A DNA stretch of 64,000 nt from Escherichia coli. GTDB lineage: Bacteria; Pseudomonadota; Gammaproteobacteria; Enterobacterales; Enterobacteriaceae. The notes under the pieces were generated by a model. That model saw nothing but the letters and a program-made list of their open reading frames with translations. It did not search any database and was not told where the DNA came from. Every line of letters starts with the position of its first letter. Positions within the stretch are counted from its first letter, which is position 1. The stretch lies in the NCBI RefSeq assembly GCF_003790525.1, contig NZ_CP033635.1; one strand, given 5' to 3'. This document shows, piece after piece, positions 5,056 through 63,984 of the stretch. The position numbers and the translations under genes were made by a program.

Positions 5056-6141
5056 ATGAAGACGTTTCCTCTGCAAAGCCTGACGCTTATTGAGGCGCAG
5101 CAAAAGCAGTTTGCGCTGGTGGATAGCATTTGTCGCCATTTTCCCGGCAGCGAGTTTCTTGCTGGCGGTGATTTAGGCTTAACGCCGGGGCTGAATCAAC
5201 CGCGCATTACCCAGCGAGTGGAACAGGTGCTGGCTGATGCATTTCACGCACAGGCTGCAGCGCTGGTACAGGGCGCGGGTACTGGCGCGATCCGTGCGGC
5301 GTTGGCGGCTTTGCTCAAACCGGGGCAGCGTCTTCTGGTGCATGACGCGCCTGTTTACCCGACGACTCAGGTCATTATTGAGCAGATGGGGCTGACGCTT
5401 ATTACTGCTAATTTCAATGACCTGTCGGCACTTAAGCAGGTCGTCGACGAGCAACAACCGGATGCGGCGCTGGTGCAGCATACGCGCCAGCAGCCGCAGG
5501 ACGGCTACATTCTGGCAGATGTGCTGGCAACGTTGCGCTCGGCAGGTGTTCCAGCCTTAACCGATGATAACTATGCGGTGATGAAGGTGGCGCGCATTGG
5601 CTGTGAATGCGGGGCGAATGTCTCGACATTTTCCTGCTTCAAGCTATTTGGGCCAGAGGGTGTTGGCGCGGTGGTAGGCGATGCCGATGTTATTAGCCGG
5701 ATTCGCGCCACGCTCTATTCCGGCGGCAGCCAGGTTCAGGGCGCGCAGGCGCTGGAAGTCTTGCGTGGTCTGGTGCTCGCGCCAGTGATGCACGCGGTGC
5801 AGGCGGGGGTATCTGAACGGTTGCTGGCTTTGCTTAACGGCGGCGCGGTGGCGGAAGTGAAAAGCGCCGTCATTGCCAATGCACAGTCGAAGGTATTGAT
5901 TGTGGAGTTTCATCAGCCGATTGCCGCCAGAGTGCTGGAAGAGGCGCAGAAACTCGGTGCCTTGCCTTACCCGGTTGGTGCAGAGTCGAAATATGAAATC
6001 CCGCCGCTCTTTTATCGACTTTCCGGAACGTTTCGCCAGGCGAATCCGCAGTTAGAACATTGCGCGATTCGCATTAACCCAAATCGCAGCGGTGAAGAGA
6101 CGGTATTGCGGATTTTGCGCGAGAGTATTGCCGACGTTTAA
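5056..6141 (+). CDS. yhfS: YhfS, PLP-dependent transferase-like protein
   Basis: 361-aa ORF, last gene of the cluster. Confidence 0.85.
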   Translation: MKTFPLQSLTLIEAQQKQFALVDSICRHFPGSEFLAGGDLGLTPGLNQPRITQRVEQVLADAFHAQAAALVQGAGTGAIRAALAALLKPGQRLLVHDAPVYPTTQVIIEQMGLTLITANFNDLSALKQVVDEQQPDAALVQHTRQQPQDGYILADVLATLRSAGVPALTDDNYAVMKVARIGCECGANVSTFSCFKLFGPEGVGAVVGDADVISRIRATLYSGGSQVQGAQALEVLRGLVLAPVMHAVQAGVSERLLALLNGGAVAEVKSAVIANAQSKVLIVEFHQPIAARVLEEAQKLGALPYPVGAESKYEIPPLFYRLSGTFRQANPQLEHCAIRINPNRSGEETVLRILRESIADV

Positions 6142-25258: not shown

Positions 25259-27063
25259 TGGAAGGTTCCGATTTTTTACTCGCAGGAGTGTTGTTTCTCT
25301 TCGCGGCGGTGGCTGCGGTGCCGCTGGCATCGCGGCTGGGTATTGGCGCTGTGTTGGGATATTTGCTGGCAGGGATTGCAATTGGCCCGTGGGGGCTGGG
25401 TTTTATTAGCGACGTCGATGAGATCCTCCACTTTTCGGAACTCGGCGTGGTGTTCCTGATGTTTATCATCGGCCTGGAGTTGAATCCCTCCAAGCTTTGG
25501 CAATTGCGGCGTTCGATTTTTGGCGTAGGCGCGGCACAGGTGCTGTTAAGCGCGGCGTTGCTGGCGGGATTATTGATGCTGACCCATTTCTCATGGCAGG
25601 CGGCGGTGGTCGGTGGCATTGGCCTTGCGATGTCTTCAACTGCAATGGCGTTGCAATTGATGCGTGATAAAAGGATGAATCGCAGCGAATCCGGCCAGTT
25701 AGGTTTCTCGGTACTGCTGTTTCAGGATCTGGCGGTGATCCCGGCACTGGCGTTAGTGCCGTTGTTGGCGGGTTCGGCAGACGAACATTTCGACTGGATG
25801 AAGATCGGCATGAAGGTGCTGGCGTTTGTCGGCATGCTGATTGGCGGGCGCTATTTACTGCGTCCGGTATTCCGTTTTATTGCAGCTTCTGGTGTGCGGG
25901 AAGTGTTCACCGCCGCGACGCTGCTGCTGGTGTTGGGTTCCGCATTGTTTATGGATGCGCTGGGGTTGTCGATGGCGCTCGGTACGTTTATTGCGGGTGT
26001 GCTACTGGCGGAAAGTGAATATCGCCATGAACTGGAAACGGCTATCGATCCCTTCAAAGGCTTGCTGCTCGGTTTGTTCTTTATCTCTGTCGGCATGTCA
26101 CTCAACCTCGGGGTGCTTTATACCCATCTGTTGTGGGTAGTGATAAGTGTGGTTGTGCTGGTGGCGGTGAAAATTCTCGTGCTGTATCTGCTGGCGCGAT
26201 TGTATGGCGTGCGTAGCTCAGAGCGGATGCAGTTTGCTGGCGTGTTGAGTCAGGGCGGTGAGTTTGCCTTTGTCCTCTTTTCTACCGCTTCTTCACAACG
26301 CTTATTCCAGGGCGACCAGATGGCGCTGTTGCTGGTGACGGTGACGCTTTCCATGATGACCACGCCGCTGCTGATGAAGCTGGTAGATAAATGGCTATCC
26401 CGCCAGTTTAACGGACCGGAAGAAGAAGACGAAAAACCATGGGTCAACGATGATAAACCCCAGGTCATTGTCGTGGGCTTTGGGCGTTTTGGTCAGGTGA
26501 TTGGTCGTTTGCTGATGGCAAATAAAATGCGCATTACTGTACTGGAGCGGGATATCAGTGCCGTTAACCTGATGCGCAAATATGGCTACAAAGTTTATTA
26601 CGGCGACGCCACGCAGGTAGATCTTTTACGTTCTGCGGGTGCAGAGGCCGCTGAGTCTATCGTCATTACCTGTAACGAGCCGGAAGACACCATGAAACTG
26701 GTGGAAATATGCCAGCAGCACTTTCCGCATTTGCATATTCTTGCGCGAGCGCGCGGACGTGTGGAAGCGCATGAGTTATTACAGGCAGGGGTGACGCAGT
26801 TTTCCCGTGAAACATTCTCCAGTGCGTTAGAGCTGGGGCGCAAGACGCTGGTCACGCTTGGCATGCATCCGCATCAGGCACAGCGGGCGCAACTGCATTT
26901 TCGCCGCCTGGATATGCGGATGCTGCGAGAGCTCATCCCAATGCATGCCGATACCGTACAAATTTCTCGCGCCAGGGAAGCCCGACGCGAACTGGAAGAG
27001 ATTTTCCAGCGTGAAATGCAACAAGAACGACGCCAGCTGGACGGCTGGGATGAATTTGAGTAG
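25258..27063 (+). CDS. kefB: Glutathione-regulated K+ efflux system KefB
   Basis: 601-aa ORF, N-terminal transmembrane antiporter domain plus C-terminal KTN/RCK domain. Confidence 0.95.
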
Positions 27064-48205: not shown

Positions 48206-48279
48206 GTATGTCTGTGCGTTTCCATTTGAGTATCCTGAAAACGGGCTTTTCAGCATGGAACGTACATATTAAATAGTAG

Positions 48280-48645
<366 letters not shown>

Positions 48646-49730: not shown

Positions 49731-50720
49731 ATGCAGGGTTCTGTGACAGAGTTTCTAAAACCGCGCCTGGTTGATATCGAGCAAGTGAGTTCGACGCACG
49801 CCAAGGTGACCCTTGAGCCTTTAGAGCGTGGCTTTGGCCATACTCTGGGTAACGCACTGCGCCGTATTCTGCTCTCATCGATGCCGGGTTGCGCGGTGAC
49901 CGAGGTTGAGATTGATGGTGTACTACATGAGTACAGCACCAAAGAAGGCGTTCAGGAAGATATCCTGGAAATCCTGCTCAACCTGAAAGGGCTGGCGGTG
50001 AGAGTTCAGGGCAAAGATGAAGTTATTCTTACCTTGAATAAATCTGGCATTGGCCCTGTGACTGCAGCCGATATCACCCACGACGGTGATGTCGAAATCG
50101 TCAAGCCGCAGCACGTGATCTGCCACCTGACCGATGAGAACGCGTCTATTAGCATGCGTATCAAAGTTCAGCGCGGTCGTGGTTATGTGCCGGCTTCTAC
50201 CCGAATTCATTCGGAAGAAGATGAGCGCCCAATCGGCCGTCTGCTGGTCGACGCATGCTACAGCCCTGTGGAGCGTATTGCCTACAATGTTGAAGCAGCG
50301 CGTGTAGAACAGCGTACCGACCTGGACAAGCTGGTCATCGAAATGGAAACCAACGGCACAATCGATCCTGAAGAGGCGATTCGTCGTGCGGCAACCATTC
50401 TGGCTGAACAACTGGAAGCTTTCGTTGACTTACGTGATGTACGTCAGCCTGAAGTGAAAGAAGAGAAACCAGAGTTCGATCCGATCCTGCTGCGCCCTGT
50501 TGACGATCTGGAATTGACTGTCCGCTCTGCTAACTGCCTTAAAGCAGAAGCTATCCACTATATCGGTGATCTGGTACAGCGTACCGAGGTTGAGCTCCTT
50601 AAAACGCCTAACCTTGGTAAAAAATCTCTTACTGAGATTAAAGACGTGCTGGCTTCCCGTGGACTGTCTCTGGGCATGCGCCTGGAAAACTGGCCACCGG
50701 CAAGCATCGCTGACGAGTAA
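49731..50720 (+). CDS. rpoA: DNA-directed RNA polymerase alpha subunit
   Basis: 329-aa [48 protein letters not shown]... Confidence 0.98.
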
Positions 50721-50736
50721 CCGGATCACAGGTTAA

Positions 50737-51144
<408 letters not shown>

Positions 51145-51157
51145 TCTGAAGCAACGT

Positions 51158-51187
51158 AAAAAAACCCGCCCCGGCGGGTTTTTTTAT
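51158..51187 (+). terminator. Intrinsic terminator of the alpha operon
   Basis: AAAAAAA-CCCGCC-CC-GGCGGG-TTTTTTT. Confidence 0.75.
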
Positions 51188-51250
51188 ACCCGTAGTATCC
51201 CCACTTATCTACAATAGCTGTACTCTTTTTGTTCATCCCCTGGAGTATTT

Positions 51251-51619
51251 ATGTGGTTACTTGACCAGTGGGCAGAGCGTCATATTACTGAGGCACAATC
51301 CAAAGGTGAGTTTGATAATCTTCCGGGAAGTGGCGAGCCATTGATTCTGGATGATGATTCACACGTGCCACCGGAATTACGTGCGGGGTATCGCTTGCTG
51401 AAGAATGCCGGTTGCTTACCGCCAGAACTTGAGCAGCGTAGGGAAGCAATACAGCTTCTGGATATCCTCAAAGGTATCCGTCATGATGATCCGCAATATA
51501 AAGAGGTTAGTCGTCGATTGTCATTACTGGAATTGAAGCTGCGACAAGCTGGATTGAGTACCGATTTTTTACGCGGCGATTATGCTGACAAGTTGTTGGA
51601 CAAAATCTACGATAACTAG
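51251..51619 (+). CDS. yhdN: YhdN, protein of unknown function
   Basis: 122-aa ORF upstream of zntR. Confidence 0.85.
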   Translation: MWLLDQWAERHITEAQSKGEFDNLPGSGEPLILDDDSHVPPELRAGYRLLKNAGCLPPELEQRREAIQLLDILKGIRHDDPQYKEVSRRLSLLELKLRQAGLSTDFLRGDYADKLLDKIYDN

Positions 51620-51629
51620 TGGAGTATGT

Positions 51630-52055
51630 ATGTATCGCATTGGTGAGCTGGCAAAAATGGCGGAAGTAACACCCGACACGATTCGTTACTACGAAAAGCA
51701 GCAGATGATGGAGCATGAAGTACGCACCGAAGGTGGGTTTCGCCTGTATACCGAAAGCGATCTCCAGCGATTGAAATTTATCCGCCATGCCAGACAACTT
51801 GGTTTCAGTCTGGAGTCGATCCGCGAGTTGCTGTCGATCCGTATCGATCCTGAACACCATACCTGTCAGGAGTCAAAAGGCATTGTGCAGGAAAGATTAC
51901 AGGAAGTCGAAGCACGGATAGCCGAGTTGCAGAGTATGCAGCGTTCCTTGCAACGCCTTAACGATGCCTGTTGTGGGACCGCTCATAGCAGTGTTTATTG
52001 CTCGATTCTTGAAGCTCTTGAACAAGGGGCGAGTGGCGTTAAGAGTGGCTGTTGA
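51630..52055 (+). CDS. zntR: Zn(II)-responsive MerR-family regulator ZntR
   Basis: 141 aa from the ATG at 51630 (MYRIGELAKMAEVTPDTIRYYEKQ...); C-terminal Cys cluster; the ORF-track start is an extension. Confidence 0.95.
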   Translation: MYRIGELAKMAEVTPDTIRYYEKQQMMEHEVRTEGGFRLYTESDLQRLKFIRHARQLGFSLESIRELLSIRIDPEHHTCQESKGIVQERLQEVEARIAELQSMQRSLQRLNDACCGTAHSSVYCSILEALEQGASGVKSGC

Positions 52056-52110
52056 TTTTTTGCTCTGGCAGGATTACACTCGCGCCGTTAAATAACCAAT
52101 TGGAGTTTTT

Positions 52111-52329
52111 ATGAGCCGATATCAGCATACTAAAGGGCAGATAAAGGATAATGCGATAGAAGCATTACTACATGATCCCTTATTCCGACAGCGCGTAGAG
52201 AGAAATAAGAAAGGGAAAGGCAGTTACATGCGAAAAGGAAAACATGGCAATCGGGGGAACTGGGAGGCCAGTGGCAAGAAAGTAAATCACTTTTTTACCA
52301 CTGGCCTTCTGCTTTCAGGCGCTTGTTAA
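52111..52329 (+). CDS. arfA: Alternative ribosome-rescue factor A (full-length reading frame)
   Basis: 72-aa [33 protein letters not shown]...; 3' end overlaps convergent mscL by 4 nt. Confidence 0.9.
52266..52306 (+). promoter_or_regulatory. Hairpin inside the arfA 3' coding region (RNase III / non-stop regulatory element)
   Basis: Perfect 9-bp inverted repeat GGCCAGTGG...CCACTGGCC around a U-rich loop. Confidence 0.6.
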
Positions 52330-52736
52330 GAGCGGTTATTCTGCTCTTTCAGCAAATCACGAATTTCTGTCAGTAATACTTCTTCTTTAGTTGGTGCAGG
52401 CGCGGCTGCTGGTTCTTCTTTTTTCCGATTCAGTTTGTTGATTAGCTTAATCGCCATAAAGATGGCAAAGGCTACAATCAGAAAATCAAAGACGTTTTGA
52501 ATGAAGACACCGTAATGCATCACAACAGCAGGGATATCCCCCTGCGCATCGCGTAGCGTGACAGCAAACTGTTTGAAATCGATCCCGCCAATTAATAACC
52601 CCAGAGGTGGCATAATGATATCGGCAACCAGTGAAGATACAATCTTCCCGAATGCCGCACCGATAATGACACCCACCGCCAAATCCACCACGTTCCCGCG
52701 CATCGCAAATTCGCGAAATTCTTTAATAATGCTCAT
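52326..52736 (-). CDS. mscL: Large-conductance mechanosensitive channel
   Basis: 136-aa [54 protein letters not shown]... Confidence 0.97.
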
Positions 52737-52865
52737 GTTATTCTCCCTATGAAGCCGACAATCATAAGTCTAACAAATGTTAAGCTATTTTCCTGCCAGG
52801 AGTGAATTTAATTAATCCCTGATAATCAAAGGGAAATAATAAGGCGTCATTAGACGCCTTATTAA

Positions 52866-54242
52866 TTACAAGAAGAAAGGACTTGGCTGGAAGAGTCTTT
52901 CGACGTCGGTAATAAACTTTTTATCTGTGAGGAACATAATTACGTGATCGCCTTGCTCAATGCGCAGATTGTCATTGGCAATCATCACATCGTTTCCACG
53001 TACCACCGCTCCAATAATCGTTCCTGGCGGTAGCTTGATTTCGTCAATGACTCTGCCGACAACGCGTGAGGTGCTTTCATCACCGTGAGCAACGGCTTCA
53101 ATAGCTTCTGCTACGCCGCGGCGCAGTGAGGAAACACCAACAATATCAGCTTTTCGCACATGGCTAAGCAACGCAGAAATAGTTGCTTGTTGCGGTGAAA
53201 TCGCAATATCGATCACGCTCCCCTGAACCAGATCCACATAAGCGCGACGCTGGATCAATACCATCACCTTTTTCGCACCCATACGTTTGGCAAGCATGGC
53301 GGACATGATATTGGCTTCGTCATCGTTGGTGACAGCAATAAACAGATCAACTTGATCGATATGTTCTTCGGCCAGCAGTTCTTGATCCGACGCATCACCA
53401 AAAAAGACGATCGTATTCTGCAACTTTTCCGCCAGTTCGGCAGCGCGCTGCTGATTACGTTCGATGAGTTTGACGCTGTAATCTTTTTCCAGACGACGCG
53501 CCAGCCCTGCACCGATATTACCACCACCAACCAGCATGATCCGCTTATACGGTTTTTCCAGTCGCTGTAATTCACTCATCACCGCGCGGATATGCTGTGA
53601 AGCGGCAATAAAGAACACTTCATCACCAGCTTCAACAATGGTCGAACCTTGCGGACGAATGGGGCGATCATGGCGGAAAATTGCTGCCACACGAGTATCG
53701 ATATGTGGCATATGTTCGCGCATGGTCGAAAGTGCATTACCAATCAGCGGGCCGCCGTAATAGGCTTTAACCACAGCCAGGCTGACTTTACCCTCAGCGA
53801 AGTTTACCACCTGCAATGCGCCGGGATACTCAATCAGTCGGTAAATATTATCGATAACCAACTGCTCTGGTGCGATCAGATGATCAATCGGTACAGCATC
53901 TGAATGAAATAGCTTATCGGCATCGCGCACGTAGTCTGGTGAGCGGATACGAGCGATGCGATTAGGGGTGTTGAAAAGTGAGTAGGCTACCTGGCAGGCA
54001 ACCATATTGGTTTCATCTGAACTGGTTACAGCAACCAGCATATCGGCGTCGTCGGCACCTGCCTCCCGCAATACGCGTGGATGAGAGCCATGCCCCTGCA
54101 CGACTCGCAGGTCAAATTTATCCTGCAAGGTCCGCAGACGCTCACCGTTGGTATCGACAACAGTGATATCGTTGTTCTCGCCAACCAGGTTTTCCGCCAG
54201 TGTGCCGCCAACCTGGCCGGCACCCAGAATGATAATTTTCAT
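52866..54242 (-). CDS. trkA: Trk K+ uptake system NAD-binding component TrkA
   Basis: 458-aa ORF with two Rossmann GxGxxG motifs. Confidence 0.97.
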
Positions 54243-54263
54243 CAGTCGCGACCCGTTATCTCA

Positions 54264-55553
54264 TCACTTTTTGATTAGCTTAGCGTAAAAGAAGCCGTCG
54301 CCCTCTTCGGCACCAGGTAGATTTTGTTTACCCGGTTGCTCTGGTGTTCCTGTTTCGCAAAGTTCGGCATCAGCAGTACGTTGCAAAAAGGCTTTAATCT
54401 GCAGGCTATTCTCTTCCGGTAACACCGAACAGGTGGCATAGACCAGGGTTCCACCGGATTTTAAATGCGGCCAAATGGCGTCGAGAATTTCAGACTGCAA
54501 TTGCGCGAGTTCCGGGATATCGCGATCGCGACGTAACCATTTAATATCCGGATGGCGACGAATCACACCGGTTGCTGAACAAGGCGCATCTAATAAAATG
54601 CGATCAAACTGTTGCTCGCCACACCATTGGGAAGGGTAACGGCCATCACCTTGTTTCACGGTTGCCTTCATACCAAGGCGTTTTAAATTGTCGTAAACGC
54701 GAGAGAGGCGCTGTTCGTCAATATCAACCGCAACAACCTGCGCTTCTGGTGCCACCTCAAGGATATGCGTTGTTTTACCGCCGGGGGCGGCACAAAGATC
54801 CAAAATGTGTTCACCGTTTTGTGGCGCAAGCCAGGTCATGCAACCTTGTGCTGAGGCATCCTGAACGGTAACCCATCCGTCTTCAAAACCAGGTAGCGCA
54901 TGAACAGGTGCAGGTGTTTCCAGACGTACAGCATCAGGGTAATCCGCATGCGGGAAACCTTTCATTCCTGCTTCATCCAGCAATGCAAGCCACCTGTCGC
55001 GGGAATGATGCGTACGATTAACGCGCAGCCACATTGGCGGACGCTGGTTATTGGCTTCGACGATGGATTGCCACTGCTCTGGATACGCTTTTTGCAGACG
55101 CTTCAGCAACCAGGAAGGATGCAGATAACGTGCATCACTGGCATTAAACTCGGCTAATAACTCTTCTTGCTGACGCTGGAACTGGCGTAATACACCGTTT
55201 ATCAACCCTTTAAGTTGCGGGCGCTTAATTGCGATAGCGCCTTCAACCGTTTCAGCCAGCGCGGCATGAGGTGGAATGCGGGTATAAAGCAGTTGATACA
55301 AACCAACCATAATCAGGTAATGAACAGTACGCTGTTTGCCTGTCATCGGACGGGCCATTAGCTTATTAATCAGCCAGTCTAACTGTGAAAGCGTACGCAG
55401 TACGCCAAAGCACAACTCTTGAAGAAGTGCTTTGTCTTTATCAGAAACTTTTTGCTGGAGCGGTGGCAGAATGTTGCTTAATGATTGCCCTTGCTCGACG
55501 ACTTGTTCAACGGCCTGGGCCGCCATGCTACGTAAATTACGTTGTTTTTTCAT
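54264..55553 (-). CDS. rsmB: 16S rRNA m5C967 methyltransferase RsmB
   Basis: 429 aa from the ATG at 55553 ([13 protein letters not shown]...); the ORF-track start is an extension. Confidence 0.93.
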
Positions 55554-61996: not shown

Positions 61997-63538
<1,542 letters not shown>

Positions 63539-63606
63539 CCTTAAAGAAGCGTTCTTTGAAGTGCTCACACAGATTGTCTGATGAAAATGAGCAGTAAAAC
63601 CTCTAC

Positions 63607-63683
<77 letters not shown>

Positions 63684-63725
63684 AATTTGCACCGCAAATT
63701 TGAAGAGGTTTTAACTACATGTTAT

Positions 63726-63801
63726 GGGGCTATAGCTCAGCTGGGAGAGCGCCTGCTTTGCACGCAGGAGGTCTGCGGTTCGATCCCGCATAGCTCCACC
63801 A
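63726..63801 (+). tRNA. alaT: tRNA-Ala (anticodon TGC), rrn spacer tRNA
   Basis: GGGGCTATAGCTCAGCTGGGAGAGCGCCTGCTTTGCACGCAGGAGGTCTGCGGTTCGATCCCGCATAGCTCCACCA. Confidence 0.97.
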
Positions 63802-63984
63802 TCTCTGTAGTGATTAAATAAAAAATACTTCAGAGTGTACCTGCAAAGGTTCACTGCGAAGTTTTGCTCTTTAAAAATCTGGATCAAGCTGAAAATTGAA
63901 ACACTGAACAACGAAAGTTGTTCGTGAGTCTCTCAAATTTTCGCAACACGATGATGAGTCGAAAGAAACATCTTCGGGTTGTGA

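Follow-up and report, generated by a model that had tools for sequence, protein, structure and literature searches.

The arfA gene of Escherichia coli is a classic case of a message made deliberately without a stop codon, and its product reports the capacity of trans-translation. In K-12, the element was described by Garza-Sanchez 2011, Chadani 2011, and Schaub 2012, whose work is taken here as summarised in PMC3989581 and PMC8012679. According to these accounts, RNase III cuts the arfA stem or transcription terminates there, a non-stop mRNA results, and its product receives an SsrA tag except when trans-translation is saturated (PMC3989581, PMC8012679). Cleavage of the stem by RNase III and SsrA tagging of the product were both demonstrated in K-12 (PMC3989581, PMC10070815). 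When RNase III is missing, premature termination still ends arfA transcripts just past the repeat; the truncated protein is active, and full-length ArfA is unstable through its hydrophobic tail (PMC3989581, PMC8012679, PMC3581467). Deletion of rnc and synonymous mutations that destabilise the stem each raise arfA mRNA strongly, and the C-termini of the ArfA protein fit the RNase III site (PMC3989581).

The same gene is connected to its convergent neighbour, mscL, by an antisense RNA that ties ribosome-rescue stress to the MscL channel. A small RNA released from arfA by RNase III lowers mscL mRNA through the mscL 3'UTR (Morra 2023, PMC10070815), which is complementary to the arfA hairpin region. 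Deletion of arfA raised mscL mRNA approximately 2-fold, repression was restored only by arfA variants that kept nt 160-203, and the stem of the mscL 3'UTR was itself cut by RNase III in vitro (PMC10070815). The mscL-arfA pair also appears in the list of E. coli excludons detected by RNA-seq (ExcludonFinder 2025, PMC12288877).

We examined this locus in a stretch of E. coli DNA of 64,000 nucleotides, referred to below as the window. Its arfA hairpin, the associated mechanism, and the antisense link to mscL are all already known and annotated, and the intact element only confirms the standard E. coli arrangement in this strain and raises no new question. The only unexplained feature of the arfA element is the frozen sequence of its core stem.

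The arfA-mscL junction of the window

The arfA coding sequence occupies 52111-52329 on the + strand (72 codons plus TAA) and was identified as the gene for alternative ribosome-rescue factor A from the ORF list, Pfam, a PDB match, and the RefSeq annotation. The 72-aa product matched the Pfam ArfA family (PF03889) with E = 3.1e-25 over residues 4-45, the N-terminal functional region; Pfam was used for this assignment because NCBIfam holds no ArfA model, and no NCBIfam model matched the 72-aa product. ArfA chains in the PDB matched the same product with E = 1e-46, and comparison with the K-12 protein in 5H5U and 5U9F revealed a single difference, K30R. The mscL coding sequence, for the large-conductance mechanosensitive channel, lies on the - strand at 52326-52736 (136 codons plus TAA) and was assigned from the ORF list and from the NCBIfam equivalog NF001841, against which it scored 284 bits (cutoff 225). 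Within the region 51250-54242 these two genes are accompanied by yhdN (51251-51619, + strand), by zntR directly upstream of arfA (51630-52055, + strand; a ZntR equivalog), and by trkA (52866-54242, - strand). The synteny zntR-arfA-mscL-trkA is present on the basis of the ZntR and MscL equivalog matches and the trkA ORF, and K-12 has the same order.

The arfA stop codon TAA is at 52327-52329, and that of mscL is at 52326-52328 on the minus strand, so the TTAA at 52326-52329 is shared by the two convergent frames and belongs to neither strand in particular. An earlier reading made from the sequence alone (the sequence-only reading) had placed a 4-nt overlap of the two stops at exactly these positions, and the TTAA was confirmed in both ORFs. 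The 4-nt overlap is annotated in K-12 too.

A 1-kb query around the site matched E. coli SMS-3-5 and other strains at 100% identity, 5425 of 5426 complete E. coli genomes contained a match to the arfA/mscL region, and RefSeq annotates arfA, mscL, zntR, and trkA at the site in all E. coli matches listed. One of the 5426 genomes had no arfA match of any kind, and one genome carried an additional copy on a plasmid. In E. coli Ec387 (NZ_AP024582.1; L002:788-1679), an IS1A element interrupts the 5' portion of arfA; the 3' remainder of the gene retains the hairpin and the mscL overlap intact, and the annotation still names a 65-aa "alternative ribosome-rescue factor A."

Several other elements of the window were recorded in passing. 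A perfect 12-bp palindrome with a 4-nt loop (TAATAAGGCGTC/GACGCCTTATTA) at 52837-52864 lies on the - strand right behind the trkA stop, with a T-rich tail after it, and forms a terminator-like site between trkA and mscL. An rRNA operon starts at the right end of the window (61997-63977; 16S rRNA, two tRNAs, and StyR-44), and an alpha-operon ribosome-binding-site element lies at 48210-48321, upstream of rpsM; both are ordinary E. coli content.

The arfA hairpin and its predicted processing

The inverted repeat that had been described in the 3' coding region of arfA is exactly where it was placed: GGCCAGTGG (52266-52274) is the exact reverse complement of CCACTGGCC (52298-52306). Its length had been given as 9 bp; the repeat is real, but its perfect extent is 10 bp. 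The 5' arm, AGGCCAGTGG, runs from 52265 to 52274 on the + strand and encodes E52-A53-S54-G55, and the 3' arm, CCACTGGCCT, runs from 52298 to 52307 on the same strand and encodes T63-T64-G65-L66, within the tail that is left untranslated or is unstable. The intervening 23 nt had been taken for a U-rich loop. RNA folding showed them instead to form an inner A/U-rich stem of 8 bp (52276-83 paired with 52289-96; 52276-52296 as a whole, + strand) closed by a 5-nt loop, AAAUC, at 52284-88. A single C/A mismatch (52275/52297) separates this inner stem from the outer stem, which in its lower part extends through G·U pairs to 52256/52316. The full stem-loop of the arfA mRNA thus spans 52256-52316 (+ strand) with 26 base pairs, and the published stem-loop, arfA nt 146-206, maps exactly onto it. 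The helix lies inside the coding sequence and ends 13 nt before the stop codon, and the hydrophobic C-terminal tail of ArfA is encoded after or within the 3' arm.

Under a first-order Markov model, 64 kb should hold approximately 10 ± 4 nine-mer pairs that form perfect 9-bp inverted repeats with loops of up to 40 nt; the window has 42. A repeat of this kind was therefore rejected as a criterion of significance by itself, being too weak. The whole 26-pair helix is exceptional, unlike the 9-bp repeat. Its energy was -39.8 kcal/mol, compared with -23.4 ± 3.1 kcal/mol for dinucleotide shuffles (z = -5.4), and none of 200 shuffles was as good. When non-overlapping 70-nt windows of the + strand were ranked by minimum free energy (MFE), the arfA hairpin was sixth, and the two best of the five ranked above it (5436-5505 and 5246-5315) sit in a GC-rich ORF. 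Ranking by MFE is confounded by GC-rich coding sequence, and the shuffle z-score is thus the better measure. The most stable 70-nt folds of the + strand besides arfA were at 5246-5805, 25291-25360, and 26861-26930; the cluster at 5246-5805 lies inside the GC-rich ORF, of 361 codons, and probably reflects base composition. Rfam yielded no family for 52256-52316, either at E ≤ 1 in a scan of 50000-54500 or at the gathering score over the whole window; the weak Rfam matches nearby were the rplQ and trkA terminators, away from arfA.

The alignment to K-12 arfA is ungapped, and the sole difference in the helix is at 52305, where the window has C (a G-C pair) and K-12 has T (a G·U pair). The earlier statement that the element is intact here thus holds, with one stem base different. 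The change is synonymous (Gly65), and it is the C at 52305 that brings the perfect repeat to 10 bp and makes the stem slightly stronger than that of K-12. The T is the allele of K-12 and DH10B, and the C is that of the window. Of the 5425 complete E. coli genomes, 2753 had exactly this 61-nt hairpin and the remainder matched it at 95% identity or more; the window thus has one of two alleles that are common in the species, throughout which the element is intact. From this near-identity, we infer that the element is very probably the known regulatory stem-loop of the arfA 3' coding sequence and that the K-12 mechanism would operate here.

The positions of cleavage can be transferred by homology. 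Morra 2023 (PMC10070815) reported that arfA is cut between nt 165 and 166 and that the small RNAs span nt 166-189 and nt 190 to the stop. On the window, the upstream RNase III site is predicted at 52275-52276 (+ strand), at the C/A mismatch where the outer stem meets the inner one, with nt 166 as the 5' end of the small RNA; the downstream site, from the published products mapped via the K-12 alignment, is predicted at 52299-52300 (+ strand). The downstream cut would then be offset by 2 nt in the 3' direction from the base that faces the upstream cut, giving the 2-nt 3' overhang typical of RNase III. The portion of arfA left by cleavage would be 52111-52275 (+ strand), comprising 55 whole codons that end in EASG with no stop and encoding, by homology, the predicted active truncated ArfA. 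Ribosome complexes in the PDB used ArfA constructs 1-55 and 1-60, and we count these structures, together with the end of the Pfam ArfA domain at residue 45, as support for a truncated active protein.

Taken together, the proposed mechanism is as follows. The arfA mRNA would fold into the 26-pair helix, and RNase III would cut both arms, at 52275|52276 and 52299|52300; on transcripts that escape RNase III, transcription would end just past the helix. By either route, the arfA message would lack a stop codon, RNase III cleavage leaving it to end after codon 55, and ribosomes would stall at its end. The product would be tagged by tmRNA and destroyed unless trans-translation is limiting; with trans-translation saturated or absent, untagged ArfA(1-55) would be released and, with RF2, would rescue non-stop ribosomes. 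The rare full-length ArfA would be unstable because of its hydrophobic tail. The account of RNase III, non-stop mRNA, and tmRNA-gated truncated ArfA that the sequence-only reading had given agrees with PMC3989581 and PMC8012679, with the addition that RNase III is not the sole route to truncation.

That second route raises the question of whether the hairpin serves mostly to terminate transcription, perhaps of both convergent genes, with RNase III cleavage secondary; the non-stop arfA mRNA would then come chiefly from termination past the helix, and this palindrome would also set the end of the mscL transcript. Downstream of the helix on the + strand comes UUCUGCUUUC, the K-12 mscL 3'UTR ends at +64 (window position 52262), 3 nt beyond the minus-strand stem, and the analogous brfA of B. 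subtilis uses an in-frame intrinsic terminator. However, the arfA hairpin went uncalled on both strands in a consensus terminator scan, and the minus-strand stem runs into UCCCAGUUCCCC, where there is no U-run, so this feature of an intrinsic terminator is lacking there. The increase in arfA mRNA upon rnc deletion or synonymous destabilisation of the stem, as well as the fit of the protein C-termini to the RNase III site (PMC3989581), also argue against termination as the main role, which we consider unlikely. Termination and RNase III cleavage are not mutually exclusive routes. The only nearby call of the scan was a weak 5-bp stem over both stop codons (52320-52334), which was discarded as being within chance (3 found versus 2.5 expected).

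Conservation among Enterobacteriaceae

A scan of the genome collection with ArfA provided the loci of the 80 closest relatives (L003-L082), all from different species and all Enterobacteriaceae. Conservation of the arms was measured over 81 sequences (the 80 species and the window), and pairing of the helix was measured over the 79 distinct sequences. In all 80 loci arfA converges on mscL. The stops were spaced by 0 nt in 35 loci; another 20 loci had a 4-nt overlap, and the other 25 had an overlap of 6-65 nt. An overlap of 65 nt was seen in, among others, Salmonella enterica subsp. diarizonae and arizonae, Trabulsiella, and three loci whose label was Enterobacter sp. or Enterobacteriaceae bacterium; the length of the overlap depends on the genus, and the 4-nt overlap of the window is one of several arrangements. 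One locus (L031:12-227) is a 383-bp contig labelled Arthrobacter sp. 18067 that carries the arfA/mscL junction and is nearly identical in protein to the Raoultella terrigena locus L030; this contig is almost certainly contamination of that assembly.

The hairpin region aligned across the loci with no gaps. When the window structure was imposed on the 79 distinct sequences, 91.6% of cells paired, compared with 43-64% when the 3' partner was slid by 1-3 columns. Eleven of the 26 pairs never vary, and nine vary on one side only, mostly from G-C to G·U. The only clear compensatory pair is 52283/52289 (alignment columns 34/40), which is C-G in 45 sequences and U-A in 29. In the core, 52266-52274 is invariant, 52298-52306 shows rare one-sided changes only, and no compensatory change was found in the core pairs of the 79 sequences. 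Covariation support is thin: with 11 of 26 pairs frozen, a core devoid of two-sided change, and one frequent compensatory pair, the alignment speaks for strong sequence constraint more than it proves pairing.

Synonymous sites were more informative about the level at which this constraint acts. Third codon positions had an identity of 1.00 across codons 52-55 of the 5' arm and of 0.98-1.00 across codons 62-66 of the 3' arm, compared with a mean of 0.62 in codons 2-47, the region of the functional protein, and all three positions of the codons of the 5' arm were invariant in the 81 sequences. Beyond the 3' arm, identity was 0.3-0.6 at most codon positions, and the ORF ended at 68-93 codons. A downstream frame unconserved in both sequence and length is as expected if the tail is normally untranslated. 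The combination of frozen arms and a freely varying downstream frame points to selection on the RNA, not the protein.

These data bear directly on whether the palindrome arose by chance or as a side effect of coding constraint on EASG...TTGL, with no function at the RNA level. As noted, single perfect 9-bp inverted repeats arise by chance about 10 times per 64 kb, and residues 52-55 are part of mature ArfA. Against this, the whole helix lies far beyond its shuffles (z = -5.4), third positions are near-invariant in both arms, the 3' arm encodes residues absent from active ArfA, and the published synonymous stem mutants (PMC3989581) contradict such a reading. We rejected it on the basis of the synonymous-site data and assign it almost no probability. 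The comparative result is modest; it is consistent with the published conclusions and adds little beyond them.

The mscL strand and comparison with described systems

With mscL convergent on arfA, the same palindrome is also present in the mscL 3'UTR. This 3'UTR, which extends from +1 to +64 in K-12 (Morra 2023), corresponds to 52262-52325 on the - strand and contains the complementary copy as a shorter stem-loop (52307-52265). Folding of a 106-nt fragment of the minus strand gave a hairpin of 13 + 6 pairs, with an MFE of -33.3 kcal/mol for the whole (z = -4.1). Each G·U pair of the arfA-strand helix corresponds to a C·A mismatch on the minus strand, which accounts for the shorter stem there. 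On the arfA side, K-12 RefSeq annotates an ncRNA, b4846 ("yrdG, arfA-derived small regulatory RNA"), at 3438431-3438484, which is the last 54 nt of arfA; the corresponding 54-nt small RNA of the window, antisense to the mscL 3'UTR, would be 52276-52329 on the + strand (K-12 annotation, PMC10070815). Once freed from arfA, this fragment would be perfectly antisense to the mscL 3'UTR and would lower mscL mRNA. The 4-nt overlap of the convergent coding sequences and the complementarity of the palindrome are seen in the DNA, and the overlap of the transcripts themselves was reported for K-12. Antisense regulation across the junction, which the sequence-only reading had offered as a possibility, had already been published (Morra 2023, PMC10070815).

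The palindrome could instead have been kept chiefly for mscL, in 3'-end formation, stability, or antisense crosstalk, with arfA truncation as a by-product. The convergence of the two genes in 80 of 80 species, with stops overlapped by 0-65 nt, is consistent with this idea, as are the cleavage of the mscL 3'UTR stem by RNase III in vitro and the approximately 2-fold lowering of mscL mRNA by the arfA small RNA (PMC10070815); in addition, the invariant core consists of Watson-Crick pairs only, which form on both strands. However, an approximately 2-fold effect on mscL is modest, whereas the synthetic lethality of arfA and ssrA and the tight repression of ArfA need the non-stop design (PMC8012679, PMC3989581). 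Where arfA is located away from mscL (154 genomes, mainly Pseudomonadaceae; PMC10070815), it still has a predicted hairpin before the hydrophobic tail. The helix is longer on the arfA strand, where its 26 pairs include conserved G·U pairs whose counterparts on the mscL strand are C·A mismatches, and tmRNA-gated expression of ArfA away from its native locus is partly published, with plasmid-borne arfA. A palindrome kept mainly for mscL is thus disfavoured, and we regard it as very improbable.

The known arfA stem-loop, acting in truncation of its own message, remains the preferred reading, and it may be joined to a further proposal that addresses the frozen core. One palindrome may be under sequence-specific selection on both strands at once, which would make it a bifunctional two-strand RNA element: the + strand would serve as the RNase III site and terminator of arfA, and the - strand would serve as the RNase III substrate and 3'-end structure of the mscL 3'UTR. 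Identity of the core arms in the 79 distinct sequences exceeds what upkeep of a helix needs, and sequence selection on two strands would explain it; G·U intermediates on one strand would be C·A mismatches on the opposite one and hence forbidden, so that covariation would be frozen. We hold this proposal to be possible but doubtful. If true, the element would be genuinely bifunctional, and not simply an arfA element with a chance overlap by mscL.

Among described systems, brfA (yqkK) of B. subtilis shares the logic of this locus, in that a small RF2-dependent rescue factor is made from a message truncated before its stop and is gated by trans-translation (PMC8012679). The truncation in brfA is due to an in-frame rho-independent terminator, in contrast to RNase III for arfA, and BrfA is described as a factor of its own, for which no link to ArfA is given (PMC8012679). 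With the yrdG and excludon system of Morra 2023, the window shares the convergence of the genes, the 4-nt overlap of their coding sequences, the complementary mscL 3'UTR, and the 54 nt of yrdG (52276-52329). Morra 2023 classed E. coli as "proximal" and not "overlap," whereas the coordinates of both the window and K-12 RefSeq give a 4-nt overlap; the discrepancy probably stems from the annotation used in that study. The closest system is the RNase III stem-loop of K-12 arfA (yhdL), which is like that of the window in gene, in position (nt 146-206), and in neighbours (zntR-arfA-mscL-trkA). The two have the same hydrophobic tail, and their hairpins are identical save for one stem base. The window differs from K-12 in having C at 52305 where K-12 has T and in the K30R substitution in ArfA, and about half of the complete E. 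coli genomes share its hairpin.
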